A stretch of 40,607 nt of DNA, from positions 1 to 40,607 of the forward strand of contig JAPPPF010000221.1 in the NCBI GenBank assembly GCA_028817665.1, in the 5' to 3' direction. Each line of letters begins with the position of its first letter. Position 1 is the stretch's first letter. Position numbers and translations under genes: made by a program. This document shows positions 11,730 through 37,999 of the stretch, piece after piece. The notes beneath the pieces were generated by a model. The model had not been told where the DNA came from and made no database searches. It worked only from the letters and a program-made list of their open reading frames with translations. Source of the stretch: Magnetovibrio sp. (GTDB lineage: Bacteria > Pseudomonadota > Alphaproteobacteria > Rhodospirillales > Casp-alpha2).

Positions 11730-13469
11730 TTATTCCGCCGCCGCGTCGTCCAACAAGGTCTCACCCGGCTTCACCCGGGTGAACCGGACCGGTTCGCGGG
11801 CGGCGGTGATGGTGTCGCCCGTGAGCGTCACCTTGGTGAACCACGAGGTCTCGATGTCGCGGGCCTCGGGGAAATCTTCCCTGAAGTGCGCGCCCCGGGA
11901 ATCCTCGCGGGCTTCCGCCGCGGCGACGATGGCGCGGCTGACCAGGATGAGGTTCTTCAGGTTCATCCAGTCGTGCCAGGTGAGGTTGTAGGCCAGCACC
12001 TTGGCGTCGACGCCGGTCTCCATGAGCTCGGCTTCGAGACCGCCGAGGCCCGCCTCGGCGCGCTTCAGGCTCTCCGCGTCGCGGATGATGCCGCCGTCCT
12101 CCCACATGAGGTCGTGGAGGCGCGTGCGGATGCCTTCGAGGCCGCCCGGCCGCTTCGCGAACGGGTGCCGGCAGCCGTGGATGGCGGCGTCGATCACCTC
12201 GAGATTGGGGTCGCGGAGCGCGCCCGATCGGGGCGTCCATTCCGCCATGCTGTCGCCGGCCAGGCCGCCGAACACGGTCGAGTTGGCGACGCCGTTGCCG
12301 CCCAGGCGGTTGGCGCCGTGCACGCCCCCGGTGTCCTCGCCGGCGGCGAAGAGGCCCTCCATGGCCGTCGTGCAATCGACGTTGAACTCGACGCCGCCCA
12401 TCATGTAGTGCGCCGTGGGCACCACCTCGACGTCGCCGGAAACGAGATCGAAGCCGCAATCGGCGCAACGCTCGACCATGCCCTTGAACAGGCGCCGCAC
12501 CTCGGGCGCGTCCAGGTGCTTCATGGTGATGTAGAGGCCGCCGTTGGGGCCGGTGTTGCCGGCCCGCATCTCGGTGAACATGGCGCGGCTGACGATGTCG
12601 CGGGTGGCGCGCTCCTCGCGCTCGTCGTAGCGGGCCATGAAGCGCTGCTTGTCGCCGCCCAAGAGGTGCCCGCCGAAGCCGCGCAGGCCCTCCTCGATGA
12701 TGGTCCCGGTGATCCGCGTGTCGGGCCCGGCGATCAGGCCGGTGGGATGGAACTGCACCATCTCCATGTCGCGGAGCGCGAGGCCTGAGCGGAGCAGCAT
12801 GGCGAGCCCGTCGCAGCTCTTGTCCCCCGAGGGCGTGTGGTACTTGTACATGGTCGGGCCGCCGCCGGTGCCGACCAGGACGGCACGCGCCTTGACGAAC
12901 AGGAACTCGCCCGTCCGCATGTCGATCATCAGGACGCCGGAGATGGCGGCGCCGTCGGGCGTCGGCACCAGTTCGACGGCGCGGTGGTCCTCCAGGCGCT
13001 TCACGCCCCGGGCCCAGACCTGCTCGGCCAGCCGGTTGATGATCTCGATGCCGGTGAGGTCGCCCTTGTGCACGGTGCGGTCGAAGGTCTGCCCGGCGAA
13101 GGCCTTCTGGTGGATGGTGCCGTCCGGGTTGCGGTCGAAGTAGCACCCCAATTCGTTCTCCAGCTCACGGATGCGGATCTGCGACTGGGTCACCAGGGTC
13201 CAGGCCAGTTCCTGGTTGTTAAGCCACTTGCCGCCCTCGATGGTGTCCATGAAGTGGCGCTCGGCGGAATCGCCCTCGGCCAGCGCCACGTTGTAGCCGC
13301 CCTGGACCATCCGCGTGCAGCCGGTCTTGCCGAGCAAGCCCTTGACGCAGACCGTGACGTCCAGGTCGGGTTCGCCCTGCAGGGTGTGCAGCGCCGCGAA
13401 CAGCCCGGCGCCGCCCGAGCCCAGGATCAGGACGTCGGTCTCCAGCGTCGGGATGTCGCGGGGGCTCAT
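11730..13469 (-). CDS. succinate dehydrogenase/fumarate reductase-type flavoprotein (SdhA/FrdA/NadB superfamily), atypical
   Basis: 579 aa from ATG 13469 (ATGA overlap with the upstream stop). DVLILGSGGAG, QFHPTG, AHYMMGG, HGANRLGGNG and EDSRGAHFREDFPE are all present. Cys replaces the covalent-FAD His. Confidence 0.85.
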   Translation of the reverse strand: MSPRDIPTLETDVLILGSGGAGLFAALHTLQGEPDLDVTVCVKGLLGKTGCTRMVQGGYNVALAEGDSAERHFMDTIEGGKWLNNQELAWTLVTQSQIRIRELENELGCYFDRNPDGTIHQKAFAGQTFDRTVHKGDLTGIEIINRLAEQVWARGVKRLEDHRAVELVPTPDGAAISGVLMIDMRTGEFLFVKARAVLVGTGGGPTMYKYHTPSGDKSCDGLAMLLRSGLALRDMEMVQFHPTGLIAGPDTRITGTIIEEGLRGFGGHLLGGDKQRFMARYDEREERATRDIVSRAMFTEMRAGNTGPNGGLYITMKHLDAPEVRRLFKGMVERCADCGFDLVSGDVEVVPTAHYMMGGVEFNVDCTTAMEGLFAAGEDTGGVHGANRLGGNGVANSTVFGGLAGDSMAEWTPRSGALRDPNLEVIDAAIHGCRHPFAKRPGGLEGIRTRLHDLMWEDGGIIRDAESLKRAEAGLGGLEAELMETGVDAKVLAYNLTWHDWMNLKNLILVSRAIVAAAEAREDSRGAHFREDFPEARDIETSWFTKVTLTGDTITAAREPVRFTRVKPGETLLDDAAAE

Positions 13470-14077
13470 CCGCCGATGCCCATCTTGGCGAACACCTCGG
13501 CGCGGCGCGCCTGGCCGGTTTCCTTGACCTTGTCGTAGAGGCTGCCCCCATGGCTGTCCATGGCCACCCGAAGCGGCCCGAAGTCCTTGATATAGAACTG
13601 CCACAGGCTTTCCGGATTTAGATCGTCAAGGTAGACGTCGGTGATCTGCTCGATCCAGGTGGTCTCCAGCGCCGCGGTGCCGCCGATGATGGCGAGGTAG
13701 ACGCCGCCCAAGTCCCGGAAGGCGGCGCGCGAGTCCTCGCCCAGCCCGCCCTTGCCGATGATCATCCGGACCCCCTCGCGCTCCATCAGGGGCCGGGTGA
13801 AGCGTTCCATGCGCATGGACGTCGTGGTGCCGATGCAGATGCTCTCGTAACCGGCCGGGCAGCTGTTGGAGACCGGCACCTTCTTGGCGTTGGGCGCCGT
13901 GTGGATGACGGCGTGGCCGGCGAGATCCAGGCGGGTCTCGCGGGCGTGGTCGAACATGTGGATCTGGGTCGCGTCGCGGATGCCGAAGAGCCAGTCCTGC
14001 AGCGTCACCGTGTCGCCGGCCTTCAGTTTACGGACGTCGTCTTCCGTGCACGGCATGGTGATTTCGTGATGCGCCAT
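13466..14077 (-). CDS. Fe-S type (class I) fumarate/tartrate hydro-lyase, beta subunit-like
   Basis: 203 aa from ATG 14077, preceded by GGGAGGA. IIGKGGLG and LAIIGGTAAL motifs. Follows the alpha-type gene. Confidence 0.8.
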   Translation of the reverse strand: MAHHEITMPCTEDDVRKLKAGDTVTLQDWLFGIRDATQIHMFDHARETRLDLAGHAVIHTAPNAKKVPVSNSCPAGYESICIGTTTSMRMERFTRPLMEREGVRMIIGKGGLGEDSRAAFRDLGGVYLAIIGGTAALETTWIEQITDVYLDDLNPESLWQFYIKDFGPLRVAMDSHGGSLYDKVKETGQARRAEVFAKMGIGG

Positions 14078-14091
14078 GATGTGTCCTCCCC

Positions 14092-14967
14092 TCAGAACCC
14101 GAAGTCGACGCCGGCCGGCGTGAAGGTGGCCCGGGCGCGCCTGGCCGAATGGCACATGATGTTGACCGCGACCGGGTTCATGGTGATGTGGGTCGCCGCC
14201 GTTTCCACGTGCACGGCGAAGGCGGTGGAATCGCCGCCGAGCCCCTGCGGGCCGATGCCGAGACTGTTGACGGCGTCCGAAAGCTCGACCTCCAGCGCCG
14301 CGCCCTCCGGGTCCTCGCAGACCGAGCCCAAGGGCCGGCCGGCGGCGGTTTTCGCCAGCTTGGTGCAGAGGTCAGACGTGCCGCCGACGCCGACGCCGAC
14401 GATGGTCGGCGGGCAGACCCGGCCGCCGGCCTCGATGACCTTGTCGACGACGAAGGCCTTGATCCCGTTCACGCCCTCGGCCGGGATGCACATCTTCAGG
14501 AACGAGCCGTTCTCCGAGCCCGATCCCTTCGGCACCATCTCGATGACGACCTCGTTCTCGGCGTCGGAGAAGTCGATGCCGATCACCGGCACGCGGCGGC
14601 CGCACGACGTGTGCTCGTTCTCGCGCGTGATCGGGTGCACGACCGACGACCGGAGCGGATGCTCATGGGTCGCCCGGGTGCAGCCCCGGCGGATCGCCTC
14701 CTTCATGGCGTGGCCGTCCATCTCGACGCCGCGGCCGATGGTGACGTTGTAGATGGGGATGCCGGTGTCCTGGCACAGCAAGTTGTTGGTCTCCTCGGCG
14801 ACCTCGATGTTCTTGATCATGGTCGCCAGGATGGACTTGCCCGTGGGGTCGGTCTCCGACGCGTCCAAGCGCTTGAAGCCCTCCTTGATGTCGTCGGGCA
14901 GGACCTTCAGGGCCTGAATGTAGAGCTGCTTGGCCGCCTCCTCGACGGCTTCGAGATCGAGTTTCAT
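14092..14967 (-). CDS. Fe-S type (class I) fumarate/tartrate hydro-lyase, alpha subunit-like
   Basis: 291 aa from ATG 14967 (GGAG upstream; an in-frame GTG at 14976 is possible). LCQDTGIPI, KGSGSEN and RVCPPTIVGVGVGGTSD are cluster-ligand and family motifs. Confidence 0.8.
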   Translation of the reverse strand: MKLDLEAVEEAAKQLYIQALKVLPDDIKEGFKRLDASETDPTGKSILATMIKNIEVAEETNNLLCQDTGIPIYNVTIGRGVEMDGHAMKEAIRRGCTRATHEHPLRSSVVHPITRENEHTSCGRRVPVIGIDFSDAENEVVIEMVPKGSGSENGSFLKMCIPAEGVNGIKAFVVDKVIEAGGRVCPPTIVGVGVGGTSDLCTKLAKTAAGRPLGSVCEDPEGAALEVELSDAVNSLGIGPQGLGGDSTAFAVHVETAATHITMNPVAVNIMCHSARRARATFTPAGVDFGF

Positions 14968-14979
14968 CCTATCCACTCC

Positions 14980-15702
14980 TCAAATCACCAGGGTCAGGCC
15001 CGAGACGGCGAGCATCGCCAGGACCAACTTCCGGAACAATTGTTCGTTCAAGCGCCGATAGAGCGCGATGCCGACCACCGTGCCGACCAGGATCGCCGGC
15101 GCCCCCCACAGGAACCGTTCGCCGGTCTCCCAGGTGACCAGCCCGGCCCAGGCCATGGCCGCCAGCGACAGCACGTGCATGGCCAGGATGTAGGGCTGGG
15201 CGACACCGCGCGCCTGCTCCTTGGGCCAGCCGCGGAGCCCGCACCAGACGGCGGGCACGGCGCCGGACATGCCGGCGAGCCCGCCCAAGACCCCGCCGAT
15301 GCCGCCGGCGACCGCGTCCAAGGACTTGCCGCCGGCCTTGACCACCGGCGGGCGGGCGATCAGCAGCAAGCCGCCGCCGTAGAGGAAAAGGAGCGCGCCG
15401 ACGGCGAGGCGGAACGGCTCGGCCTCGATCTGCGCCAGCAGCCAGGTGCCCAAGGGCACGCCGAGCGCGCCCAATCCCAGGAACGGCGCCAGATACGTGA
15501 AATCGAGTTCCCGGTAGAGCCGGGCCAGGGCGATGACGTGGATAGTCAGCCCGGTCATCACGATCAGCGGCGCCGCCACGGTCGGCTCGAACACGTGCAG
15601 CCAGACGGCCGCCGCCACCAGCGCGTCGCCGAAGCCCGCGGCGCCGACCACGAAGGCCGCCAGGAAGGCGCCGAGCACCAGGATGTAGATCTCAGGCGGC
15701 AT
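14980..15702 (-). CDS. TauE/SafE-family anion (sulfite/sulfonate-type) exporter permease
   Basis: 240 aa, very hydrophobic, with two Gly-rich half repeats (VVGAAGFGDAL and GGIGGVLGGLAGMSGA). Its start overlaps the preceding anchor gene by 11 nt. Confidence 0.75.
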   Translation of the reverse strand: MPPEIYILVLGAFLAAFVVGAAGFGDALVAAAVWLHVFEPTVAAPLIVMTGLTIHVIALARLYRELDFTYLAPFLGLGALGVPLGTWLLAQIEAEPFRLAVGALLFLYGGGLLLIARPPVVKAGGKSLDAVAGGIGGVLGGLAGMSGAVPAVWCGLRGWPKEQARGVAQPYILAMHVLSLAAMAWAGLVTWETGERFLWGAPAILVGTVVGIALYRRLNEQLFRKLVLAMLAVSGLTLVI

Positions 15703-16033
15703 TGAGCAGATACACCAGTCCGATCACCAGACTGATGCCTCCCGTCAGCGCGACGATGGTCTTCTGGCCGTCCCGCCAGGGCAGGAATTCCAATGCCAGG
15801 AGCCGCAGCCCTCCGGTCAGGTGCGCGGCCAGGAGCAGGATCAACACGGTCTCGGCCAATTTCACCATCGGCATCTCGGCCCAGGCCAGGAAGCCGTCGA
15901 AGGCGGACGCCTTCTTGATCGCCAGGTAGAGCACCTGGAAATGCACCGGCAGGAACAGCGCCAGCAGCACGCCCGAGACCCGGTGCAGCACGAAGGCCCA
16001 ATAGTTGGGGTGGTCGCGGTGGCCGGCTTTCAT
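15692..16033 (-). CDS. SDH/FRD-type small hydrophobic membrane anchor (3 TM)
   Basis: 113 aa from ATG 16033 (TGATG junction). YWAFVLHRVSGVLLALFLPVHF resembles the SdhC HRxSG region. Three hydrophobic spans. Confidence 0.65.
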   Translation of the reverse strand: MKAGHRDHPNYWAFVLHRVSGVLLALFLPVHFQVLYLAIKKASAFDGFLAWAEMPMVKLAETVLILLLAAHLTGGLRLLALEFLPWRDGQKTIVALTGGISLVIGLVYLLNAA

Positions 16034-16392
16034 CACGCGCCTCCCAGCATGTAGAAGCGCCACGCGACCTTGAGGCCCAGGTAGGCGAGCAGCACGGCGG
16101 CCAGGAAACACAGCAGATCGACGCGCGTCTTGGGAAGCTTGGTCATCTCGTTCAGGATGGCGCGGAGCCCTATGGGCGCGTGCACGGTGACGGCGATCAC
16201 GAAGACCGAGTAGAAGGCGAACCAAGCCTCGGAACCGGCGACCCGGCCGATGATTTCGGCCGCCGAGAGCCCGCCCCGGACGGCGTAGACGATGGTGCCG
16301 AGGTGCACCGCGATGCAGACCGCCAGGACCATAGCGCTGACGCGCTGGGCCAACCACAGCCGGGCTTCCGTCTGAATGTTGGGCGCGCTCAT
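16033..16392 (-). CDS. SDH/FRD-type small hydrophobic membrane anchor (3 TM)
   Basis: 119 aa, ATGA overlap with the SdhB-like stop. Three hydrophobic spans with His residues (VHLGT, VHAPIG). Confidence 0.65.
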   Translation of the reverse strand: MSAPNIQTEARLWLAQRVSAMVLAVCIAVHLGTIVYAVRGGLSAAEIIGRVAGSEAWFAFYSVFVIAVTVHAPIGLRAILNEMTKLPKTRVDLLCFLAAVLLAYLGLKVAWRFYMLGGA

Positions 16393-17114
16393 TCCAGCTC
16401 TCCCTTGAGCGCCGCCAAGGCGGTGGCGCGCTTCAGTCCGGCGATGGATTGGGTCGGGTTGAGGTGCTTGACGCAGCGCTCAACGCAGCCCTGTTGCGAG
16501 TGGCAGGCGTGGCAGCCGGCGTCGCCGGCGACGGCCTTGAGACGCTGCTTGTCGGCGATGTCGCGGACGTCGTTGACCAGCGTCCAGGCGCGGTTCAACG
16601 CCGCCGGACCCAGGTAGTCCTGGTTCCAGGCGACGACGTCGCAACTGGCGTAGCAGACGCCGCAGCCGATGCATTCGATGCCGGCGCTGGCCCGGCGGCG
16701 CTTCGGACTGTCGGGCGAGACCTGGGCGAAATCGTCATCGCGGGTCTGGGCGCCCTGGAAGCGGCCCTCGGCGCGGGCCCACTTGTCGAAGAAGTCGGTC
16801 ATGTCCACCGACAGGTCCTTGATTACCTGAAGGTTGCGGAGCGGCGCCACCTCAAGGCGGCCGTCGCCGGCGACCTTCGAGACGTGGGTGCGGCAGGTCC
16901 AGCGCGGCTTGCCGTTCACGGTCATGGCGCAGGACCCGCAAACGCCGACCCGGCAGGCGAAGCGGTAGCTCAGCGTCGGGTCTATGTGACGCTGGATGTA
17001 GGTGACCACGTCGAGGACCGTCTGGCTCTCCTGGCGCGGCACCTCGAACTCCTGATAACGGCCGACGTCGCCGTCGCCGCGCCAGACCGATACGGTCAGT
17101 GTATCCCCGCTCAC
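16389..17114 (-). CDS. succinate dehydrogenase/fumarate reductase-type iron-sulfur subunit
   Basis: GTG 17114 forms a GTGA overlap with the upstream stop. CRVGVCGSCAM (2Fe-2S), CIGCGVCYASCD (4Fe-4S) and CHACHSQQGCVERCVKHLNP (third cluster, with one extra Cys). Confidence 0.85.
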   Translation of the reverse strand: MSGDTLTVSVWRGDGDVGRYQEFEVPRQESQTVLDVVTYIQRHIDPTLSYRFACRVGVCGSCAMTVNGKPRWTCRTHVSKVAGDGRLEVAPLRNLQVIKDLSVDMTDFFDKWARAEGRFQGAQTRDDDFAQVSPDSPKRRRASAGIECIGCGVCYASCDVVAWNQDYLGPAALNRAWTLVNDVRDIADKQRLKAVAGDAGCHACHSQQGCVERCVKHLNPTQSIAGLKRATALAALKGELE

Positions 17115-24609: not shown

Positions 24610-25362
24610 ATGTTCGGCATCGCGCCGGAAATCCTCACCGTCGTCTCCATCGGCGTCGGCATCGGCGGCTTCGTCAAGGGGGTCACCGGCATCGGGCTGC
24701 CGATCGTCGCCATCGCGGTGATGGTGAACTTCATGGACCCGGTGACCACCTTCGCGACCCTGATCGCGCCGATCCTGGTGACCAATTTCTGGCAGGCCGC
24801 CACCGCCCACGACTGGCGCGCGCCCTTCAAGCGCTTCTGGCCGATGATCATCTGCTTCATCGCGTGCCTGTTCGTCGGCGCCGAGCTGTTGGTGGTCCTC
24901 GACGGCAGCGTACTGCTGACCGTGCTCGGGGTCTGCGTCGCCGTGTTCGCCGCCTCCAACCTGATCCGGCCGCGCCAGCACCCGCTGTCGCCCGCGGTCG
25001 AGCGCGTCGCCGGACCCATCGCCGGCGCGCTCGGCGGCGTCCTCGGCGGCCTGACGGCGATCTGGGGCCCGCCGATGATGATGCTGTTCGTGCTGCTGAA
25101 GCTTGAGAAGGACACCTGGGTGCAGACCGTCGGGCTGATCTGGTTCCTGGGCTCGGTGCCGCTGGCCATCGCGTATTGGAACAACGGCGTGCTCAACGCC
25201 GACACCATCCCGCTGTCGCTGCTGTCTTGCGTACCGGGTATGATCGGCATCTGGATCGGCGAGGTCGTGCGCAAGCGCATCGACCAGGATACCTTCCGCA
25301 AGGTGATGCTCATCGCGCTGTTCCTGATCGGCCTCAACCTGATCCGCCGCGCGATCTTCTGA
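24610..25362 (+). CDS. TauE/SafE-family anion exporter permease (second copy)
   Basis: 250 aa, hydrophobic. GIGGFVKGVTGIGLP and AGALGGVLGGLTAIWGPP are Gly-rich half repeats. Confidence 0.75.
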   Translation: MFGIAPEILTVVSIGVGIGGFVKGVTGIGLPIVAIAVMVNFMDPVTTFATLIAPILVTNFWQAATAHDWRAPFKRFWPMIICFIACLFVGAELLVVLDGSVLLTVLGVCVAVFAASNLIRPRQHPLSPAVERVAGPIAGALGGVLGGLTAIWGPPMMMLFVLLKLEKDTWVQTVGLIWFLGSVPLAIAYWNNGVLNADTIPLSLLSCVPGMIGIWIGEVVRKRIDQDTFRKVMLIALFLIGLNLIRRAIF

Positions 25363-25389
25363 GGCTTGGGCGAGAGGAGGCCGGCCGGC

Positions 25390-26721
25390 ATGGATGGCCA
25401 CAGGGGTGAATTCGCATCGCGGCTCGGCTTCATCCTGGCCGCCGCCGGTTCGGCCATCGGGCTCGGCAACATCTGGAAATTCCCCTACGTGGCCGGCGCC
25501 AACGGCGGCGGCGCCTTCCTGCTGCTCTACCTGGGGATGGTCTTCACCATCGGGCTTTCGGTGATGCTCGCCGAGCTCGCCATCGGCCGCGCTGCCAGGC
25601 TCAACCCGGTCGGCGCCTTCGCCAAGCTGAAGGGCGGCGCCTGGGTGGGGGTCGGCTACATGGGCGTGATCGCCGGCTTCGTCATCCTGTCCTTCTATTC
25701 GGTGGTCGGCGGCTGGACCCTGGCCTACACGCTCTACAGCCTCGGTCCGCTCATGGAGATCACCGAACCCGAGCGCCTCGGCGCCTTCTTCACCGGCTTC
25801 ATCGCCAACCCGGTGAGCCCGCTGTTCTACCACGGCATGTTCATGGCGATGACCATGTTCGTGGTCGTCGGCGGCGTCGAGAAGGGGATCGAGCGCGCCG
25901 GCCGGCTGCTGATGCCGCTGTTGTTGGGGTTGCTGGTGCTGCTAACGGCGCGCGCCGTGACGCTGCCCGGCGCCGGGGCCGGCCTGGCGTTCTTCCTGAC
26001 CCCGGATTTCTCGAAGATCGACGGCGCCACCGTGACCGCGGCGCTGGGTCAGGCGTTCTTCTCCCTGTCGCTCGGCATGGGCGCGCTGCTCACATACGGC
26101 TCCTACCTGTCGCGGCGGGAGAACCTGGCGTCGTCCGCGCTCTGGGTGACGTCCCTCGACACGGTCATCGCCGTCAGCGCCGGCTTCCTGATCCTGCCGG
26201 CCGTCTTCGCCTTCGGCTTTGACCCGGCCGTCGGGCCGGGGCTGACCTTCATTACGCTGCCCGCCGTGTTCGCCCAGATGCCCCTGGGCGCGCTGTTCGC
26301 GCCGCTGTTCTTCGGCCTCCTGACCATCGCCGCGCTGACTTCGGCGGTGTCGCTGCTGGAGACCGTTGTCGCCTACCTCGTCGACCAGCTGGGCTTCGCC
26401 CGGCGTCGCGCCACCGTGCTCTTCGGCGTCGCCATCTTCGCGCTCGGCGTGCCCTCGGCACTGTCCTTCGGGCCGCTCCGCGGCGTCACCATCGCCGGGC
26501 GGAGCTTCTTCGACGCCATGGACTACCTGGCGTCCAACCTGATGCTGCCCCTGGGCGGCATCGCCATTGCCGTGTTCGCCGGCTGGGTCGTCCGCGAACG
26601 CCTGCTCGACGAGATCACCGCGTCGGGCGCGCATCGCGTCGCGGGCCTCGCCGTGTGGATATGGATCTGCCGTCTCGCGGCGCCCTTGGCCATCGCCTGG
26701 ATCCTGATCACCGGCCTCTAG
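25390..26721 (+). CDS. sodium-dependent transporter, SNF (neurotransmitter:sodium symporter) family
   Basis: ATG 25390 lies 9 nt after GAGAGGAGG. FASRLGFILAAAGSAIGLGNIWKFPYVAGANGGGAFLL is the hallmark SNF N-terminus. Confidence 0.88.
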   Translation: MDGHRGEFASRLGFILAAAGSAIGLGNIWKFPYVAGANGGGAFLLLYLGMVFTIGLSVMLAELAIGRAARLNPVGAFAKLKGGAWVGVGYMGVIAGFVILSFYSVVGGWTLAYTLYSLGPLMEITEPERLGAFFTGFIANPVSPLFYHGMFMAMTMFVVVGGVEKGIERAGRLLMPLLLGLLVLLTARAVTLPGAGAGLAFFLTPDFSKIDGATVTAALGQAFFSLSLGMGALLTYGSYLSRRENLASSALWVTSLDTVIAVSAGFLILPAVFAFGFDPAVGPGLTFITLPAVFAQMPLGALFAPLFFGLLTIAALTSAVSLLETVVAYLVDQLGFARRRATVLFGVAIFALGVPSALSFGPLRGVTIAGRSFFDAMDYLASNLMLPLGGIAIAVFAGWVVRERLLDEITASGAHRVAGLAVWIWICRLAAPLAIAWILITGL

Positions 26722-29009: not shown

Positions 29010-29996
29010 CTAGATCGCCAACACCACCTTACCCTTCGTCTGACGCGCCTCGATGAGCTCGTGGGCGGTCCGCGCCTCGGAAAGGGCCAGGGTGCGGTCG
29101 ATGGTGACCCGCAATTCGCCGGCGGCGTACCACTGGAACAGATCGTAGGCCCGGGCCTGCCGTTCCTCGGCGCTGGCGATGTAGTCGGCGAGGTGCGGCC
29201 GGGTGAAGAACACGGACCCGGCCTCGGCCAATTCGAGGGGATCCAGCTGCCCGATGGGACCCGACGCGTTGCCGTTGTTGGAGACGACGCCGCGCCGTTT
29301 GACGGCCTTCAGGCTGCCCCGGATGGTGTCCTTGCCGACGGAATCATAGACCACGTCGACGCCCTCGCCGCCGGTGAGTTCGAGCACCGCCTCGGCGAAG
29401 TCCGTTTCGCGGTAGAGGATCGCATGCTCGGCGCCGAGGGACCTCGCGATCTCCGCCTTTTCCGGGCTGCCGACGGTGGTGAAAACCGTGGCGCCGATCC
29501 GCGTCGCCAACTGGATCAGCAACTGCCCGAGGCCGCCGGCGCCGGCGTGGATCAGGCAACTTTCGCCGGCCTGCAGCGGGAACAGGGAATGCGACAGGTA
29601 GTGCGCGGTCGAGCCCTGCAGCTGCAATGCCGCCGCCACGTCGAGCGTCACGCCGTCCAGCACGTGCACCAGCTTCCAGGCCGGCACCACCGCGTATTCG
29701 GCGTAGCTGCCGAGCTCGATGCAATAGGCGACCGGGTCGCCCAGCTCGAAATCGTCGACGCCGTCGCCGACGGCCTCGACGAACCCGGCGCCCTCCATCC
29801 CGAGGGTCAGGGGCGGCGACTGGGCGTAGGTGTCGGAACGCTTGTAGATGCCCTCGCGCATGTAGACGTCGATGAAATTGATGCCGGCGAAGGCGATACG
29901 CACCAGGACCTCGCCGGGCCCCGGATCGGGCACCGGCACTTCGTCGACCCGGAGGTTTCCGGCGCCGCCGTATTCGTGGACGCGAACCGCCTTCAT
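29010..29996 (-). CDS. NADPH:quinone reductase-like zinc-independent MDR oxidoreductase
   Basis: MKAVRVHEYGG...GEVLVRIAFAGINFIDVYMREG, AGAGGLGQLLIQLA and TKGKVVLAI are typical quinone-oxidoreductase-type MDR signatures. Confidence 0.85.
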   Translation of the reverse strand: MKAVRVHEYGGAGNLRVDEVPVPDPGPGEVLVRIAFAGINFIDVYMREGIYKRSDTYAQSPPLTLGMEGAGFVEAVGDGVDDFELGDPVAYCIELGSYAEYAVVPAWKLVHVLDGVTLDVAAALQLQGSTAHYLSHSLFPLQAGESCLIHAGAGGLGQLLIQLATRIGATVFTTVGSPEKAEIARSLGAEHAILYRETDFAEAVLELTGGEGVDVVYDSVGKDTIRGSLKAVKRRGVVSNNGNASGPIGQLDPLELAEAGSVFFTRPHLADYIASAEERQARAYDLFQWYAAGELRVTIDRTLALSEARTAHELIEARQTKGKVVLAI

Positions 29997-30040
29997 ACCG
30001 GCTCTCCCCAGCCGCTGGACAAGGCCGGTACTATTGGCCG

Positions 30041-30931
30041 TCAGCTCGCCTGCTTCAAGGCCCCGAAGGCTTCTTTCAGCGCGTCGCCGACGTGCGACGG
30101 CGTCGCCAGGACGTTGACGCCGGCGGCCTCCAGCGCCTTCTTCTTCGACGCGTAGGTGCCCTTGTCGCCCATGACGATGGCGCCGGCGTGGCCCATCTTC
30201 TTACCCGGCGGCGCGGCGCCGCCGGCGATGAACGAAACCACCGGCTTATCCATGGTCGCCGCGTACTCGGCCGCGTCCTCCTCCATGGAGCCGCCGATCT
30301 CGCCGACCATGACCACCGCTTCGGTGCCCTCGAAGGCGTCCAGCGCCTCCAAGGCGTCGCGGGTCGTGGTGCCGAGGATCGGGTCGCCGCCGATGCCGAG
30401 GAACGCCGTTTGGCCGAAGCCGGCGGAGACGATGTTCTGGCACATCAGCGTCGCCAGACTGCCGGACCGTGAGATCACGCCGACGCTGCCCTTCTTGAAG
30501 ATCCGTTCGTTGAAGGCCGGCATGAAGCCGAGGAAGCATTCGCCGACGGTGGCGGTGCCGGCCGTGTTTGGGCCGATGATGGCGGTGCCCGCCTCGCGGG
30601 CCGCGGCCATGAAGTACATGACGTCCTGCACCGGGATGTGTTCGGTCAGGCAGACGATGGTCTTGGCGCCGGCCTCGATGGCGTCCAAGGCCGCAGCCTT
30701 GACGCCCAAAGGCGGGATGAACATCACCGTGGCGTCGAAGCCGCCGGCTTCCATGGCCTCCTTGGCCGAGCCGAAGACCGGCACGCTGCAATGCTCGGTG
30801 CCCGCCTTCTTCGGGTTGACCCCGCCGACGACGTTGGTGCCGTATTCCTGCATGCGCTCGGTCCAGAAGGTGCCCTGCTTGCCGGTGATGCCCTGTACCA
30901 GGACGCGGTGTTCTCTTCTGACGATCCTCAT
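30041..30931 (-). CDS. succinyl-CoA synthetase alpha-type subunit (ADP-forming acid-CoA ligase, CoA-binding/phosphohistidine subunit)
   Basis: VLVQGITGKQGTFWTE, GPNTAG and MGHAGAIV (phosphohistidine loop). ATG 30931 lies 6-7 nt after GGGAGG and overlaps the beta-type stop (TGATG). Confidence 0.85.
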   Translation of the reverse strand: MRIVRREHRVLVQGITGKQGTFWTERMQEYGTNVVGGVNPKKAGTEHCSVPVFGSAKEAMEAGGFDATVMFIPPLGVKAAALDAIEAGAKTIVCLTEHIPVQDVMYFMAAAREAGTAIIGPNTAGTATVGECFLGFMPAFNERIFKKGSVGVISRSGSLATLMCQNIVSAGFGQTAFLGIGGDPILGTTTRDALEALDAFEGTEAVVMVGEIGGSMEEDAAEYAATMDKPVVSFIAGGAAPPGKKMGHAGAIVMGDKGTYASKKKALEAAGVNVLATPSHVGDALKEAFGALKQAS

Positions 30932-32064
30932 CACGCACCTCCCTTGGCGGCGTCGACGGCGGCCTTGCAGGCGGCGTCCATGTTGGGCAGCGGGTCCAGC
31001 CCCATGCGTTCCTTCAGCATCTCGATGGCGACCTGGTCGCCGGTGCCGGCGATCGAGAAGAACACCGGAATATCCGGTTTAAGCTCGTCCCAGGCGTTGA
31101 GGATGCCGTCCATCATCACGTCGCAGCGCGCGAAGGCGCCGCAGAAATTGACCACCAGGCTCTTCACGCCGGGCTTGTCGAGGACCATCTTCAGCCCGTC
31201 GGTGGCCTTGGTGTAGGCCTCGCCGCCGATCTCGCAGAAGTTCGCCGGGTCGCCGCCGTGATGGCGGACCACGTCCATGGTGGTCATGGTCAGCCCGGCG
31301 CCGTTGGCCAGGACGGCGACGTCGCCGTCGAGCTCGATGTACTTGATGCCGAGATCCTCGCCGCGCTGTTCGAGGCCGGTGAGCTTGTCCGGCGTGCCGT
31401 TGGGCGCGATCTCCTGCTGGCGCTTGATGCCCGAATCATCCAAGGAGAACTTGCAATCCAGCGCGATCACCTGCCCCTCGCCGGTCAGCACCAGCGGATT
31501 GATCTCCAGGAGCTCGGCGTCGTTCGCCGTGTAGGCGGCGTAGAGCTTGACCAGGGTCTCGGCGACGCCCTCCTCGGCGCCGTCGAGGGCCAGGCCGTCG
31601 ACCAGTGCGCGGGCGGCGGCGAGGTCGAAGCCCTCGCGGATATCGACCGCCGCCTTCCTGAGCTTCTCCGGGGTCTCGACGGCGATCTCCTCGATGTCCA
31701 TGCCGCCCTCGGTCGAGAACATGACCATCGGGCCCTTGGAGATCGGGTCGTTGAGCACGGCGGCGTAGAACTCGCGGGCGATGTCCGAGCACTGCTCGAC
31801 CAGCACCTTCTCGACGACGTGGGTGGCGATGGTCATGCCGAGAATGGTCTCGGCGTGCGCGCGCGCCTCGTCGGGCGTCTTCGCCAGTTGGATGCCGCCG
31901 GCCTTGCCGCGCTTGCCGGTCGGCACCTGCGCCTTGACGACGACCAGGCCGAGCGTCTCGGCCGCCTTCATGGCGGCGTCCGAATCGCGGGCCAGGATGC
32001 TCTCCGGCACCGCGATCCCGGCGGCGGCCAGGATCGGCTTCGCCGCGTATTCCTCGAAGTTCAT
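30931..32064 (-). CDS. succinyl-CoA synthetase beta-type subunit (ATP-grasp)
   Basis: MNFEEYAAKPILAAAGIAVP, VVKAQVPTGKRGKAGGI, LLEINPL and ANGAGLTMTTMD. Confidence 0.85.
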   Translation of the reverse strand: MNFEEYAAKPILAAAGIAVPESILARDSDAAMKAAETLGLVVVKAQVPTGKRGKAGGIQLAKTPDEARAHAETILGMTIATHVVEKVLVEQCSDIAREFYAAVLNDPISKGPMVMFSTEGGMDIEEIAVETPEKLRKAAVDIREGFDLAAARALVDGLALDGAEEGVAETLVKLYAAYTANDAELLEINPLVLTGEGQVIALDCKFSLDDSGIKRQQEIAPNGTPDKLTGLEQRGEDLGIKYIELDGDVAVLANGAGLTMTTMDVVRHHGGDPANFCEIGGEAYTKATDGLKMVLDKPGVKSLVVNFCGAFARCDVMMDGILNAWDELKPDIPVFFSIAGTGDQVAIEMLKERMGLDPLPNMDAACKAAVDAAKGGA

Positions 32065-32068
32065 GCGT

Positions 32069-33505
32069 CTATTTCCCGTGCTTTTCCCAATAGGCGCCGA
32101 ACAGCTCCTCCTCGGACGGCTTGTCCTCTGGGATGGTGGTCACCAGGTGGGTGATGTTGAGGAAGTTCTTGAGGTTCAGGTTCTCGGTGATCGAGTTGCC
32201 GGCCCAGGTGCCGCAGCCCATGGAGAGCGTGAACGGCAAGCCGTTGTCAAAGCTGCCACCGTTGCCGAAGGTATGCGCTTGGTTGACCAGGACGCGGACG
32301 ACCCGGAGGTCTTCGGCCAATTCCTGGGTATGGGCGGCGTCCTTGGTGTGGATGCCCACGGAATGGCCCATGCCGACGAAATCGAGCACGTTCTGGACGT
32401 GCGCCTTCGCCGCCGCGAAATCCTTGGCCCGGTAGACGGTCAGCGCCAGGGACAGCTTCTCATCGGAGAACGGATGGTCCTTGCCCGCCGCGTTCTCGTC
32501 CTCGACCAGGAAGAACTTGGCCGACTTGGCCTCTTCCGGCAGCCCGCAGGTCTCGGCGAAGACGTCGGCGTCCTTGGCGATGACGTGGCGGTTCAGGTGC
32601 CCGTCGACCCAAAGCGTGTCCTGGATCTTCTGCTTGTCCTCGGCCGTGCAGAGATAGCCGCCGGCGTCCTTCAACGCGGCGATGGCGTCGTCGTAGACGT
32701 CGTCGAGAATGGTCAGCGAGTTTTCCGACGAGCACGAGGTCGCGTTGTCGAAGCACTTCGACATCATGATCTTGTTGGCGGCGTCCGCCAGGTCGGCGGT
32801 TGAATCGATGATCACCGGGACGTTGCCGGCGCCGACACCGATGGCCGGGGTTCCCGACGAATAGGCGCGCCGCACGTTGTTCTGCGAGCCGGTGACGACG
32901 ACCAGGTCGGCCTGGTTCATCAACTCCTGGGTCAGCGCCTTGGAGACGGGCGCGGGCAGCACCTGGACAAGGTCCTCGGGCGCGCCGATCTTCTTCAGCT
33001 CGGCGCGCATATACTCGACCGTCCGGGTGGTCGTGGTCAGCCCGGCCGGGCTCGGCGCGACGATCACCGCGTTGCGGCCCTTGACCGCCAGCATCGCCTT
33101 GTTGACGGGCGTCGCGGCCGGGTTGGTCGAGGGCGCCACGGCGGCGACCACGCCGACCGGCTTGGCGTACTTGACCAGGCCCTTCTCCGGCAGTTCCTCG
33201 ATGATCCCGACCGATTTCTGCCGCATCAGGTCGCGCAGGCAGCCGAAGGTCTTGCGGGTGTTCTTGGTGATCTTGCTGTCGACGTTGCCGAGGCCCGTGT
33301 CCTGGACCGCGATCTCGGCCAGTTCCTTGGCCCGCGCCGGCTCGTAGATGGACCAGGCCAGCGCCGTCACGGCTTCGTCGACGGCGGCCTGGTTGGCGAA
33401 CTCGAAGGTCGCCATGGCCGCCCTCGCCCGCTCCATCAGGCCGTCGATCACGGCGGTGGTGTCAACTTCGTTCTGGGGTGCCTGAGCGGCGGCAGTCTGG
33501 TTCAC
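32069..33505 (-). CDS. CoA-acylating aldehyde dehydrogenase (EutE/PduP/SauS-like)
   Basis: GTG 33505 lies 6 nt after AAGGAGG. 478 aa, no NAD-ALDH EE..G motif layout, catalytic Cys context FDNATSCSSEN, VVTGSQNNV. Size and motifs fit acylating enzymes. Confidence 0.8.
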   Translation of the reverse strand: MNQTAAAQAPQNEVDTTAVIDGLMERARAAMATFEFANQAAVDEAVTALAWSIYEPARAKELAEIAVQDTGLGNVDSKITKNTRKTFGCLRDLMRQKSVGIIEELPEKGLVKYAKPVGVVAAVAPSTNPAATPVNKAMLAVKGRNAVIVAPSPAGLTTTTRTVEYMRAELKKIGAPEDLVQVLPAPVSKALTQELMNQADLVVVTGSQNNVRRAYSSGTPAIGVGAGNVPVIIDSTADLADAANKIMMSKCFDNATSCSSENSLTILDDVYDDAIAALKDAGGYLCTAEDKQKIQDTLWVDGHLNRHVIAKDADVFAETCGLPEEAKSAKFFLVEDENAAGKDHPFSDEKLSLALTVYRAKDFAAAKAHVQNVLDFVGMGHSVGIHTKDAAHTQELAEDLRVVRVLVNQAHTFGNGGSFDNGLPFTLSMGCGTWAGNSITENLNLKNFLNITHLVTTIPEDKPSEEELFGAYWEKHGK

Positions 33506-33560
33506 GTCAACCTCCTTTGGGTTTTCAACATCGTAACCTGATCACAAGGAAAATGGGAAC

Positions 33561-33591
33561 GGCCAGGGGCGCAGGTTAACCGCCCCTGGCC
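33561..33591 (-). terminator. strong intercistronic hairpin between tctA and the aldehyde dehydrogenase gene (partial terminator or mRNA stabiliser)
   Basis: GGCCAGGGGCG (33561-33571) and CGCCCCTGGCC (33581-33591) form a perfect 11-bp stem with a 9-nt loop. On the minus-strand RNA it is followed by GUUCCCAUUUUCC. Confidence 0.45.
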
Positions 33592-33598
33592 GAGGGAC

Positions 33599-35107
33599 TC
33601 AATCGGAAACCGCGGTCACGGGTTCGGGTTGGGGTTTCGGGACGAACGACCGCCAGGCCCCCATGGCGATGGTGGCGACACCGCCGAGAATGAGCGCCAA
33701 ACCGATGGGACGGTCGAGGAAACCGCTGAAGTCGTACTGCAGCATCTGCATGGCCTGGGCGAAGGTCTGCTCGCCGACCTTGCCGAGGATCAGGCCGAGC
33801 ACGATCCCGGCCACCGAGTAGCCCGAGCGCCTGAGGAAGAAGGCGATCAGGCCCGCGGTGAACATGACGATCACGTCGACCACCAGGCCGCGGACCGCGT
33901 AGGCGCCGACCGTCGCCATCATCAGGATGGCCGGCGCCAGGAAGTGGAACGGGATTCTCAGCATGTGGACGACCGTCTTGGTCTGCAGCCAGCCAAGGAA
34001 GAAGATGCAGATGTTGGCGAAGAACATGGCCGCGAAGACGACCCAGATGAGATCGCCGGAGTTGACGAAGACCAGCGGTCCGGGCTCCATCTCGTGCATC
34101 TGGAAGACGCCGACCATCATTGCCGTCAGCGCGCCGCCGGGAAGGCCCAGCGCCAGCAACGGGATCATCGCCGCGCCGGTGGCCGCGTTGTTGGCCGTCT
34201 CGGACGAGACCACGCCCTCCAGTTCGCCCTTGCCGAACTTGGTTTTGTCCTTCGACCAACGGACCGCCTCGTTGTAGCCCATGAAGGCCGCCAGCGTCGC
34301 GCCGATGCCCGGCAGGATGCCGCAGAAGAAGCCGATCACCACGGAGCGCGCGACGGCCAGCTTCAGCTTCCAGAATTCGGCGAAGGTCGGGAAGTCGAGG
34401 TTCACCTTGGGCGCCTCGGTGGTGCCCTTGGCGCGCTTCTCCATCTGGATGAAGACCTCGGAGACGGCGAAGAAGCCGAGGATCGTCGGGATGAAGTGGA
34501 TGCCCGCCAGGAGATAGGCGACGCCGAAGTCGAAGCGCTCAAGCCCGCCCACGGGGTCGATGCCGACCATGGCGATCATCAGGCCCAGGAGCACCGACAG
34601 CCAGCCCTTCCAGAGGTCACCGGAGCCGACCGAGGCGGCGACGGCGAGGCCGAAGAAGACCAGCGCGAAGATTTCCGGCGGCCCGAACGCCGAGATCGCC
34701 CAGTTGGCGATGGGCGCCGTGGCGAACATCATCAGCAGCGCCGAGCAGGTGCCGCCGAAGGCCGAGCACAGGACCGCCGCGCCGACCGCCTTGCCGGCCA
34801 TGCCCTTCTGGGTCATCGGGTAGCCGTCGAAGCACGTCGGCGCGTTTTCCGGCGCGCCGGGAATGTTGAACAGGATCGCCGTGATGGCGCCGCCGAACAC
34901 GCCCGAGCAGTAGAGCACCGAGAACAGCATGATGCCGTCGGTGGCCGAGAGGTTTCCCGTGAACGGCAGCAGGATGGCGGCGAGCGTGAGCATGCTGACG
35001 CCGGGAATGGCGCCGAAGACCATGCCGCCCAACAGGCCGCCGGTGAAGATCAGGATCGATACGGGGTTGCTGAAAAGCGTCAACGTACCGGCAATGAAAT
35101 GTTCCAT
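33599..35107 (-). CDS. tctA: tripartite tricarboxylate transporter (TTT) large permease
   Basis: 502 aa, polytopic. GGLLGGMVFGAIPGVS and LALGLPGGALTAMM. Follows tctC and tctB. Confidence 0.88.
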   Translation of the reverse strand: MEHFIAGTLTLFSNPVSILIFTGGLLGGMVFGAIPGVSMLTLAAILLPFTGNLSATDGIMLFSVLYCSGVFGGAITAILFNIPGAPENAPTCFDGYPMTQKGMAGKAVGAAVLCSAFGGTCSALLMMFATAPIANWAISAFGPPEIFALVFFGLAVAASVGSGDLWKGWLSVLLGLMIAMVGIDPVGGLERFDFGVAYLLAGIHFIPTILGFFAVSEVFIQMEKRAKGTTEAPKVNLDFPTFAEFWKLKLAVARSVVIGFFCGILPGIGATLAAFMGYNEAVRWSKDKTKFGKGELEGVVSSETANNAATGAAMIPLLALGLPGGALTAMMVGVFQMHEMEPGPLVFVNSGDLIWVVFAAMFFANICIFFLGWLQTKTVVHMLRIPFHFLAPAILMMATVGAYAVRGLVVDVIVMFTAGLIAFFLRRSGYSVAGIVLGLILGKVGEQTFAQAMQMLQYDFSGFLDRPIGLALILGGVATIAMGAWRSFVPKPQPEPVTAVSD

Positions 35108-35137
35108 AACTATGTCCTCCTCAAGGGGCGCGGCCGA

Positions 35138-35674
35138 TCAACGGATCAGGACCAGCAGCCAGTTGGAGAAATCGTAGAAGGGGTGCATGGTTCCCGCCGG
35201 CAGCCCCACGTAGAGGATCTTCGCGAACAGGATCAGCAGGAATGCGTAGATACCGACCGTCACCGCGGCGATGCGCTTCCAATTCCGTTCGCCGCCGATG
35301 TAGACGAAGGCGGCGATGAACACCGGCGTCACCGTGTAGAAGCCGATCGGCTCCAGCAGGAACGCGTAGACGATGGGCAGGCCGATGATCAGCGTCGCCC
35401 GCAGCCGGTATCCGGCGTCCGGCGCGTCGTCACCGTCGGCGCCGGCCGCCGCCTCTTCCCCGCCACCGGCCTCGCCGCCGCGCCGCCATTCGATGGCGAG
35501 TTGCGCGATCGCGCAGAACGCGATGGCGAAGATCATGGCGCGCGGCCAGCCGGCGGCGCCGAACTCGTAGATCTCCAGTTCTTCGTCGAAATTGAATGTC
35601 AGTATGTAGGCGCCAATGGCGAAGATCAGCCAGAACGCCGTCTCCATCAATTGCCGTGTGGTTACCTTGTTCAT
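35138..35674 (-). CDS. tctB: TTT small membrane subunit
   Basis: 178 aa with four hydrophobic spans. Located between tctC and tctA. Confidence 0.75.
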   Translation of the reverse strand: MNKVTTRQLMETAFWLIFAIGAYILTFNFDEELEIYEFGAAGWPRAMIFAIAFCAIAQLAIEWRRGGEAGGGEEAAAGADGDDAPDAGYRLRATLIIGLPIVYAFLLEPIGFYTVTPVFIAAFVYIGGERNWKRIAAVTVGIYAFLLILFAKILYVGLPAGTMHPFYDFSNWLLVLIR

Positions 35675-35692
35675 GTCAACCTCCCGAAAGAA

Positions 35693-35725
35693 GGGGCGCC
35701 GCCGCGATGGTCGGGGCGGCGCCCC
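35693..35725 (-). terminator. strong hairpin after tctC (attenuator or stabiliser upstream of the tctB RBS)
   Basis: GGGGCGCCGCC (35693-35703) and GGCGGCGCCCC (35715-35725) form a perfect 11-bp stem with an 11-nt loop. The minus-strand RNA continues UUCUUUCGGGAGGUUGAC-AUG (tctB). Confidence 0.45.
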
Positions 35726-35770
35726 GGTTCCTTCATGTGCCCCCGGATACTCGACGGGGAGAGCGAACGA

Positions 35771-36799
35771 TCACTTCACCAGGCCCATGGATTTGTAGGC
35801 CTTGCGGTAGATCGCGGCGGTGTCGTTGATTAGCTTCACCGAGCCTTCCGTGTCGCGGAAGCTGTCGATGGCGTCCATGAACTTCTTCTTGTTGAAGCTC
35901 TGGAAGCTCGGCTGATGCCAGGCCTTCTGGAAGGCCCACTTCAGCCACTTGACCCGGTCCGCGGGCGCGTCCTTGTGGACGTAGAAGCCCCGGAAGCGGA
36001 GCAGCGGCTCGAAGGTCAGGCCGACGTCGTTCATCGCCGGCACGTCCTTGAAGGCCGCCGGACGGGTCTTGTAGATGGTCAGGATCGGCTTGAAGTCGCC
36101 GCTGTCGAGGAAGCCGCGGACGTCGCCGGGCTGCTCGAACAGCGCGTCGACCTGGCCACCCTTCAAGGCCGCGTAGCGGGGGCCGCCCTTGTCGAAGCTG
36201 ATCTGCTGCATCTTCATGCCGAAGTGATCGGTGATGAACTTGAGATTCACCCGCTCCATGGAACCCGCCTTTGAGACGTTGGCGATGGTCGAGCGGCCTT
36301 TCTTCGATTTCACGTACTTGACGTAGGAATCCCAGTCCGTGAAACGGGTCTCGTTGCCGCGGATGTAGATCTGCGAGAACGTGATCTGCGCCGTCACCAG
36401 CGGCACGAAGACTTCCGCCGGATTGGGGTTCTTGGCCTTCAACGCGTGCGCGCTGGTGGCGTCGTCGATGTGCTCCATGACCGAATAGCCGTCGGCCGGC
36501 GCGGCCATGTAGGACTTCATCCCGACGGTGCCGCTGCCGCCCGGCTTGTATTCCAGGTTGAGCGCGGCGCCGGTGACCTCGGTCACCGCCTCGGCCATCG
36601 CCCGGGACAATTGCCCGGAGCCGCCGCCCGGCCCATAGGGGACGAGCATGGTCATGGGACGTTCCGGAAAGCCGTTCGGCTTTTCCATCTTGTCCGGCAG
36701 ATTTCCGGGCGACGCGGGCGCCGCCGCGAAGGCGCCGGCGACCAGGCACAGCACGAATTTCGCGGCGAACCGCTTGCTGCCCGAAAATGAATGTGTCAT
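35771..36799 (-). CDS. tctC: TTT periplasmic substrate-binding protein (Bug/TctC family)
   Basis: ATG 36799 after GGGAGA. Signal peptide RFAAKFVLCLVAGAFAAAPASP, then VPYGPGGGSGQLSRA. 342 aa. The longer 539-codon open frame upstream is Arg/Gly-rich shadow sequence. Confidence 0.85.
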   Translation of the reverse strand: MTHSFSGSKRFAAKFVLCLVAGAFAAAPASPGNLPDKMEKPNGFPERPMTMLVPYGPGGGSGQLSRAMAEAVTEVTGAALNLEYKPGGSGTVGMKSYMAAPADGYSVMEHIDDATSAHALKAKNPNPAEVFVPLVTAQITFSQIYIRGNETRFTDWDSYVKYVKSKKGRSTIANVSKAGSMERVNLKFITDHFGMKMQQISFDKGGPRYAALKGGQVDALFEQPGDVRGFLDSGDFKPILTIYKTRPAAFKDVPAMNDVGLTFEPLLRFRGFYVHKDAPADRVKWLKWAFQKAWHQPSFQSFNKKKFMDAIDSFRDTEGSVKLINDTAAIYRKAYKSMGLVK

Positions 36800-36836
36800 G
36801 TGTAATTCTCCCAACAGAGTGTTTCGAGTTGTCACC

Positions 36837-36857
36837 GGATAGCCGCCATGGCTATCC
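36837..36857. promoter_or_regulatory. perfect dyad upstream of tctC (candidate IclR operator)
   Basis: GGATAGCC-GCCAT-GGCTATCC has 8-bp perfect arms and lies 38-60 nt upstream of the tctC ATG. Confidence 0.35.
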
Positions 36858-36882
36858 CTTAATTCGCGGCACCTTTGGGAAC

Positions 36883-36912
36883 GCCTCCCGGCCCGTGCCG
36901 GGGCCGGGAGGC
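36883..36912 (-). terminator. hairpin directly after the iclR-type gene stop
   Basis: GCCTCCCGGCC (36883-36893) and GGCCGGGAGGC (36902-36912) form an 11-bp stem with an 8-nt loop, 12 nt after the TAA at 36925-36927. No clear U tract. Confidence 0.35.
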
Positions 36913-36924
36913 ACCTTGGCCCCG

Positions 36925-37755
36925 TTAGTCCGCGGGCATCGAACCGGCTTCCGCCGACTCGAATTCCTTGTCTCCATCCTTCTCCTGAAGCTCGATGATG
37001 TGCTTCTGCATGGCCGCCGCGACGGCCCGCATGGTGGGCAGGTGTTCCTCCGCCTTCTTCACCGACATGCGCGCGTCGGGCGCGTGCACGGCGAGGCCGG
37101 CGACGACCTTGCCGTCGCCGTCGTAGATCGGCACCGCCAGCGCGATCAAGCCGGTCAGGTTCTCCGAATCGTTGGTCGCGTAGCCGCGCCGCCGAATCGT
37201 CTTCAGCTCTTCCTCGAGCACGTCGGGGTCGGTGATCGTGTTCTCGGTCAGCGCCGGCAGCGGCGCCGCGGTGATCAGGCGCTTGCGGGTGCGGCTCGGC
37301 AGGTGCGCCAACAGCAGCTTGCCGATCGCCGTGGCGTGCACCGAGACCCGGCTGCCGGGCCGGAACTGCAACCGCAGCGGCCAATCGCATTCGACGCGGT
37401 CGATATAGACGACCCCGTCGCGATCCAGGATGCCGATGTTGCAGGTCTCGCCGATGGTAGCGACCAGGTCCTTGAGGACGGTGCGCATGGGCGCCAACCG
37501 GTAGGCGGCGTGCAGCGCGTTGAGGCTGAGCGTCACCATGCGCGCACCGACGGAGAAATGATCGCGGGCGAAGTCGCGGCGGATCAGGTCGAGGTCTTCC
37601 AGTTGCCGGACGATGCGATGGACGGTTTGCCGGGGCAGGTCGAGGGTCGCCGAAATATCCGCGAGGCCCATGGGCCGGTCGGATTCGAACAAGGCGTCGA
37701 GGACGAGGACCGCCTTGTGAAGTGCCGAACCGCTTTCCTTCGCCGTGTCAGTCAT
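36925..37755 (-). CDS. IclR-family transcriptional regulator
   Basis: LHKAVLVLDALFESDRPMGLADISATLDLPRQTVHRIVRQLEDLDLI wHTH, plus an IclR effector-domain-sized C-terminus (TITDPDVLEEELKTIRRRGYA). Confidence 0.88.
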   Translation of the reverse strand: MTDTAKESGSALHKAVLVLDALFESDRPMGLADISATLDLPRQTVHRIVRQLEDLDLIRRDFARDHFSVGARMVTLSLNALHAAYRLAPMRTVLKDLVATIGETCNIGILDRDGVVYIDRVECDWPLRLQFRPGSRVSVHATAIGKLLLAHLPSRTRKRLITAAPLPALTENTITDPDVLEEELKTIRRRGYATNDSENLTGLIALAVPIYDGDGKVVAGLAVHAPDARMSVKKAEEHLPTMRAVAAAMQKHIIELQEKDGDKEFESAEAGSMPAD

Positions 37756-37847
37756 GCATCTTTCCTGAACCCGTTGACGCCGCGCTTAAGAAACTGAATG
37801 CGCACCTCAGCCTAGCGGCAACCTGACAAAAATCAAATTAATTCGAA

Positions 37848-37880
37848 TAAATTGTCCCATTTTATTAAATTATGACAATT
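37848..37880. promoter_or_regulatory. 8-bp perfect inverted repeat in an AT-rich island upstream of iclR-type gene / protease gene
   Basis: AAATTGTC (37848-37855) and GACAATTT (37873-37880) are separated by 17 nt, inside a strongly AT-rich stretch at about 37826-37890. Confidence 0.3.
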
Positions 37881-37999
37881 TTTTCTTAGAATCATCGCCT
37901 CGGCGACATGCCATATCGGTTCGGCGACACCGCCACGGCGGCGGCCGGCGCCGCGTTTCCGCGCCTGACGGCGCGCCTCAGCCGGGCTATCGTGGGGCC

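Follow-up and report, generated by a model that had tools for sequence, protein, structure and literature searches.

A probable sauSCD-type operon for sulfoacetate catabolism in a metagenome-assembled genome of Magnetovibrio sp.

Which acid is served by a gene cluster that places a tripartite tricarboxylate transporter (TTT) beside a CoA-acylating aldehyde dehydrogenase (ALDH) and a ligase resembling succinyl-CoA synthetase (SucCD)? The question is raised by a window of 40,607 nucleotides from Magnetovibrio sp. (GenBank assembly GCA_028817665.1, contig JAPPPF010000221.1), which makes up the entire contig C233 of a metagenome-assembled genome that totals 3.2 Mb over 312 contigs and is 86% complete. 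Eight minus-strand genes at 29010-37755 of this window encode an IclR regulator, TctC, TctB, TctA, an acylating ALDH, a SucC-like and a SucD-like protein and a medium-chain dehydrogenase/reductase (MDR), and all eight were found where an earlier note on this DNA had placed them. The identities of the genes, the paralogy of the ligase and the counts of neighbours were observed directly; from these we infer the substrate, the direction of the reactions and the regulation, and conclude that the eight genes very probably form an operon of the sauSCD type for the catabolism of sulfoacetate. This acid commonly arises when taurine or sulfoquinovose, the head group of plant sulfolipid, is broken down. 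In the proposed route, the TTT system TctCBA, similar to SauZYX, would import sulfoacetate, and SauCD would convert it to sulfoacetyl-CoA through the conserved phosphohistidine, ATP being split to ADP and phosphate. SauS would then reduce sulfoacetyl-CoA to sulfoacetaldehyde with NAD(P)H, the single Xsc of the genome, encoded 27 kb off, would release acetyl phosphate and sulfite, and Pta would form acetyl-CoA from acetyl phosphate. Sulfite would leave through TauE-type exporters or be oxidised. The gaps between the genes from tctC to the MDR gene measure 96, 30, 93, 4, -4 and 44 nt, the last being the spacing that the note had reported, and with this spacing the seven genes fit one transcription unit.

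The ALDH gene (32069-33505) starts with GTG, has AAAGGAGG 5' of the start, and carries the catalytic-cysteine context NATSCSSEN, which the note had quoted, at 32720-32746. Against the NCBI curated equivalog NF047625, which describes the acylating sulfoacetaldehyde dehydrogenase SauS, its product scores 795.2 bits (cut-off 600) over positions 2-464 of the 464 in the model. No other copy in the genome exceeds that cut-off, which was reached in none of 14 control genomes. The rival models score far lower: 372 bits for the AdhE type, 306 for the EutE-type acetaldehyde dehydrogenase and 187 for the EutE/PduP subfamily. The note had asked whether the enzyme would group with ALDHs outside sulfonate metabolism, and this comparison of models decides in favour of SauS. 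Judged by the curated model, the enzyme is SauS, with a predicted CoA/NADP-dependent activity between sulfoacetaldehyde and sulfoacetyl-CoA. The same enzyme bears on another reading of the cluster, in which the acid would be 3-sulfopropanoate, malonate or succinate and the product 3-sulfopropanal, malonate semialdehyde or succinate semialdehyde. The nearest solved structure is indeed an acylating succinate-semialdehyde dehydrogenase (8cei, 296 bits), which favours such a reading; against the 795 bits of the SauS model, however, the succinate-semialdehyde dehydrogenase models give 51 bits or less.

The two genes that follow encode the SauC-like beta subunit (30931-32064) and the SauD-like alpha subunit (30041-30934) of an ADP-forming acid-CoA ligase; sauC lies 4 nt from sauS, and sauD overlaps sauC by 4 nt. 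The pair has the two-subunit architecture of SucCD, sharing with the housekeeping enzyme the fold, the order of the Pfam domains, the GEIGG motif and the phosphohistidine loop MGHAGAIV, which was located at 30173-30196 as the note had quoted it. It is nevertheless a diverged paralogue. The note had advised looking for a separate housekeeping sucCD, and one is present on contig C64, with 593 bits for SucC and 477 bits for SucD on the equivalog models. The beta subunit of the cluster is 37% identical to this SucC and reaches 356 bits with the SucC equivalog, short of the required 370, so that it does not qualify as a housekeeping SucC. The presence of the C64 pair also speaks against succinate as the acid, as that substrate is already served. 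A search of 1.8 billion representatives at 50% identity placed the window protein in one main clade, with a few relatives at 44-51% identity and canonical SucC at about 35-41%. In a maximum-likelihood tree it groups with SauS-adjacent homologues from 14 named loci (SH-aLRT 99), and this clade nests in a larger supported clade, separate from canonical SucC.

While the clade retains the phosphohistidine loop and GEIGG, three other loops distinguish it from the housekeeping enzyme. The beta subunit has GG[E/D]AY where canonical proteins have GGGA[T], and CGAFAR[C/T] in place of FGGI[M/T/V]RC; the alpha subunit has GPNTAG in place of GPNCPG. In succinyl-CoA synthetase structures the two replaced loops of the beta subunit line the acid-binding site, and we take this as a lead only. 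Among the nearest SucC-like outgroups, two lie beside an ALDH gene, one of them also beside a gene for an Xsc-like thiamine pyrophosphate enzyme. No orthologue of SauT, the ligase that forms AMP, was found in the genome, a provisional result at 86% completeness; the best match is 32-35% identical. Another branch was observed on metagenome contigs L102 and L104, where SucC-like relatives (41-44% identity, motif GAFART) come directly after subunits of 2-oxoacid:ferredoxin oxidoreductase, without an ALDH, and one of the two contigs also has a TTT system. This arrangement suggests that the branch has another acyl-CoA role, possibly one that yields ATP.

The transporter genes stand together within the cluster, as expected of a SauXYZ gene set. 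They encode the SauZ-like periplasmic substrate-binding protein TctC (342 aa, 35771-36799, PF03401), the SauY-like small membrane subunit TctB (35138-35674, PF07331) and the SauX-like large membrane subunit TctA (33599-35107, PF01970, 436 bits). An open reading frame at 35733-36749 was considered for TctC and rejected as a spurious, overlapping, Arg-rich frame with no Pfam match; the true frame matches PF03401, begins with a signal-like segment and is preceded by the ribosome-binding site GGGAGA. With aligned TctC homologues as the query, species genomes were scanned, and 80 loci were fetched, from marine alpha- and gammaproteobacterial bins at 63-74% identity. SauS lies within 10 kb of TctC in 44 of the 80. 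SauC and/or SauD adjoins SauS in 16 loci and an AMP-forming SauT-like ligase does so in about 22, while a TauE/SafE sulfite exporter adjoins TctC in 32; alpha- and gammaproteobacterial clusters were described by Liu et al. (2023; PMC10413351) as mostly having SauT. None of the 80 loci has Xsc or Pta at a distance of 10 kb or less from TctC. Because SauCD, SauT-like ligases, SauS and TauE all recur as its neighbours, this transporter family works with ligases of both types and is linked to the metabolism of sulfonates. At one locus (L015) a SauT-like ligase and TauE adjoin the TTT genes, and SauS was not detected within 10 kb. The linkage of the transporter to sauSCD is frequent and not universal, since the closest complete relative (G118, locus L115) has sauS-sauC-sauD without an adjoining TTT, flanked by the metal-transport genes NicO, DUF1007, ZnuABC and Fur.

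How common this gene set is was assessed in 151 genomes of the order to which the window belongs; related genomes are not independent, and the results are therefore given as counts and not as statistical tests. SauS exceeds its cut-off in 34 of the 151, and the SucC-like gene is present in 31. In 27 of the 30 other carriers sauS directly adjoins the SucC-like gene, and in the remaining three the two lie on separate contigs. Among the 31 carriers of the SucC-like gene 27 have Xsc, against 15 of the 120 non-carriers. From genomes of this order, regions centred on sauS were fetched separately from the TctC loci, and only in them is adjacency to xsc visible. Four genomes (L110-L113) have sauS-sauC-sauD-xsc as one string, and a fifth (L114) has xsc-pta-TTT-sauS-sauC-sauD, and xsc lies beside sauSCD or within 4 kb of it in five sampled genomes. 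SauCD, not the AMP-forming SauT, is the usual ligase in this order, and it is coupled to Xsc. The co-occurrence and adjacency of the cluster with Xsc, an enzyme that acts on sulfoacetaldehyde, argue further against another acid, as does TauE beside the transporter in relatives.

In the window, as the note had said of positions 1-2423, xsc and pta are present, on the plus strand at 3-1364 and 1497-2423. Xsc (sulfoacetaldehyde acetyltransferase) scores 702 bits on NF005713 (cut-off 620) and is the sole Xsc of the genome; the 5' end of its gene is cut by the contig end. The phosphate acyltransferase that follows is of the Pta type (PF01515), with 347 bits on NF006045 (cut-off 282) and 324 bits on NF008852, under the cut-off of 413 of the latter. 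Three genomes of the same family have Xsc 28-30 kb from sauS, like the window, and the layout of this sulfonate island appears to be conserved within the family. Elsewhere in the assembly, at a contig end (G000:C115:2-241), a short stretch matches the N-terminal positions 3-78 of the Xsc model and may represent the 5' portion that the cut gene lacks. Acetate kinase was not found in the genome, which is a provisional result given its 86% completeness.

Xsc also bears on the direction of the pathway. The two enzymes could run in reverse, SauS oxidising sulfoacetaldehyde (for example from taurine) to sulfoacetyl-CoA and SauCD yielding ATP and releasing sulfoacetate; both reactions are reversible in principle, and, as Liu et al. 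(PMC10413351) state, this direction had been hypothesised for homologous enzyme pairs in sulfoglycolytic (sulfo-transketolase) clusters. The operon, however, has a binding-protein-dependent TTT importer and no exporter, the genome has an Xsc to consume sulfoacetaldehyde, and sauSCD lies directly beside xsc-pta in relatives. Because of the importer and the position of xsc in relatives, we regard the reverse, ATP-yielding direction as very improbable.

Several points weigh against the assignment to sulfoacetate catabolism. The genes xsc-pta lie outside the operon, about 27 kb away across unrelated modules, for which reason they are counted as a shared downstream step and not as part of it. Two SucC outgroups with the GAFAR motif adjoin 2-oxoacid:ferredoxin oxidoreductases and lack an ALDH; since these homologues share the motif, GAFAR was rejected as a sulfoacetate-specific signature and is by itself not definitive of sulfoacetate use. 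The operon is known here from the genes of one metagenome-assembled genome, 86% complete, and its proposed orthology to characterised enzymes comes from a curated model for SauS and from neighbourhoods for SauCD and TctC. Finally, the SauCD enzyme of Bilophila wadsworthia (BwSauCD) also acts on 3-sulfopropanoate (20%) and malonate (7%) (PMC10413351), which would allow for an acid other than sulfoacetate. Taking this together with the model scores, the housekeeping sucCD and the neighbours described above, we consider such an acid quite unlikely, and sulfoacetate remains the substrate that we assign to the operon.

The regulation of the operon would fall to the IclR-family protein encoded at 36925-37755 (PF09339 and PF01614), a candidate SauR, homologues of which (46-54% identity) occur in eight related sau loci. 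Upstream of its gene, on the same strand, an AT-rich inverted repeat, ATTGTC..N18..GACAAT, was found at 37845-37885. The sole promoter-like site upstream of iclR, TTGTCA-16-GACAAT, overlaps it, and the hexamers of the promoter are the arms of the repeat. Two other sau loci (L025 and L067), which together with the window represent three different orders, have a similar motif, GGGAC(A/G)ATTTGTC, upstream of their IclR genes. Because the promoter hexamers coincide with the arms and the motif recurs, the repeat suggests itself as a candidate repressor site covering the promoter, and the IclR protein probably represses the operon by binding there, over its own promoter. A palindrome, GGATAGCC-N5-GGCTATCC, at 36837-36857, some 40 nt ahead of the start of tctC, was seen in the window only and is a possible second operator. 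Two perfect 12-bp GC-rich hairpins were also noted, one between iclR and tctC (36883-36912), without a T tract, and one in the tctA-sauS spacer (33560-33592); a scan for terminators returned fewer sites than shuffled sequence. All of these elements are listed on the minus strand.

The last gene of the operon (29010-29996) encodes, by its model matches, an MDR of the quinone-oxidoreductase type, and we treat it as an accessory gene. The solved structure that it matches best is that of 2-haloacrylate reductase (1wly, 251 bits). Homologues at 53-61% identity recur in sau clusters of either ligase type (L051, L053, L064, L074, L041, L042 and L060); in L051 and L053 they follow sauD directly, and in L064 and L074 they follow SauT. 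None was found in the eight order-level sauS-centred regions that were fetched. The MDR may provide an accessory step of sau clusters that has not been described before.

Between xsc-pta and the operon, the window holds other modules related to sulfonates, namely a succinate-dehydrogenase-like operon with a fumarase-like gene (11730-22868) and a unit with an SNF transporter (23058-26721); NCBIfam models confirm the SdhA/FrdA-like, SdhB-like and fumarase-like genes within them. A further scenario would connect one of these modules with the operon. In it, the proteobacterial SauCD clade would have arisen from SucCD in a recruitment separate from that of the Bilophila enzyme and would have a wider or different range of acids (including, for example, 3-sulfopropanoate), and the MDR would catalyse an undescribed extra step, such as the reduction of an unsaturated sulfonate, tying the operon to the neighbouring succinate-dehydrogenase-like module. 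We judge this scenario unlikely.

The sulfoacetate operon proposed here can be compared with systems already described. Liu et al. (2023; PMC10413351) characterised the sauXYZ-sauS-sauCD sulfoacetate cluster of B. wadsworthia, in which BwSauCD (E5Y8P8/E5Y8P7) is specific for sulfoacetate, the TTT binding protein BwSauZ binds sulfoacetate with a Kd of 0.13 uM, and BwSauS is an NADPH-dependent sulfoacetaldehyde dehydrogenase. Likened by gene content, the window operon shares with it the TTT importer, the acylating sulfoacetaldehyde dehydrogenase and the SucCD-type ADP-forming ligase. The two differ downstream: Bilophila uses TauF to reduce sulfoacetaldehyde to isethionate, which the glycyl-radical enzyme IseG then cleaves, whereas the partner in the window is Xsc-Pta. 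The window operon also has an IclR regulator and a trailing MDR, unlike that of Bilophila. In Cupriavidus necator H16, the sauRSTU system (Weinitschke et al. 2010, as described in PMC10413351) takes sulfoacetate through sulfoacetyl-CoA and sulfoacetaldehyde to Xsc and Pta, the path that we propose here, and its SauS matches the same curated family as that of the window. According to that description, C. necator relies on the AMP-forming SauT and the major facilitator superfamily transporter SauU, in place of which the window has SauCD and a TTT system. Clusters of sauSCD with a TTT system were also reported from marine sponge-symbiont and seawater bins in a study of 2025 (PMC12625764), where one symbiont bin carried such a cluster, as did 3 of 99 further bins. 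That case agrees with the present one in gene set, predicted role and origin in marine Proteobacteria, and like ours is bioinformatic only; to it we add the order-wide counts, the adjacency of xsc in relatives and the clade motifs.

In the light of these systems, the proposal of the earlier note, that a SucCD-type ligase and a TTT importer replace SauT and SauU on a route leading to Xsc, is borne out by the SauS model, the paralogy of the ligase and the neighbourhoods. The arrangement is not a new variant, however: the sauSCD-TTT route has been published (PMC10413351, PMC12625764), and the window is a further example of it. The gain is incremental and consists of the clade-specific ligase motifs, a candidate operator, a recurrent MDR and the recognition of SauCD as the usual form in the order. 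Annotation is refined as well, since these genes commonly still carry the label succinate-CoA ligase. For the biology of the group, the cheaper, ADP-forming activation of sulfoacetate, first shown in a gut anaerobe, would be the usual route in one marine alphaproteobacterial order, where it is coupled to Xsc.

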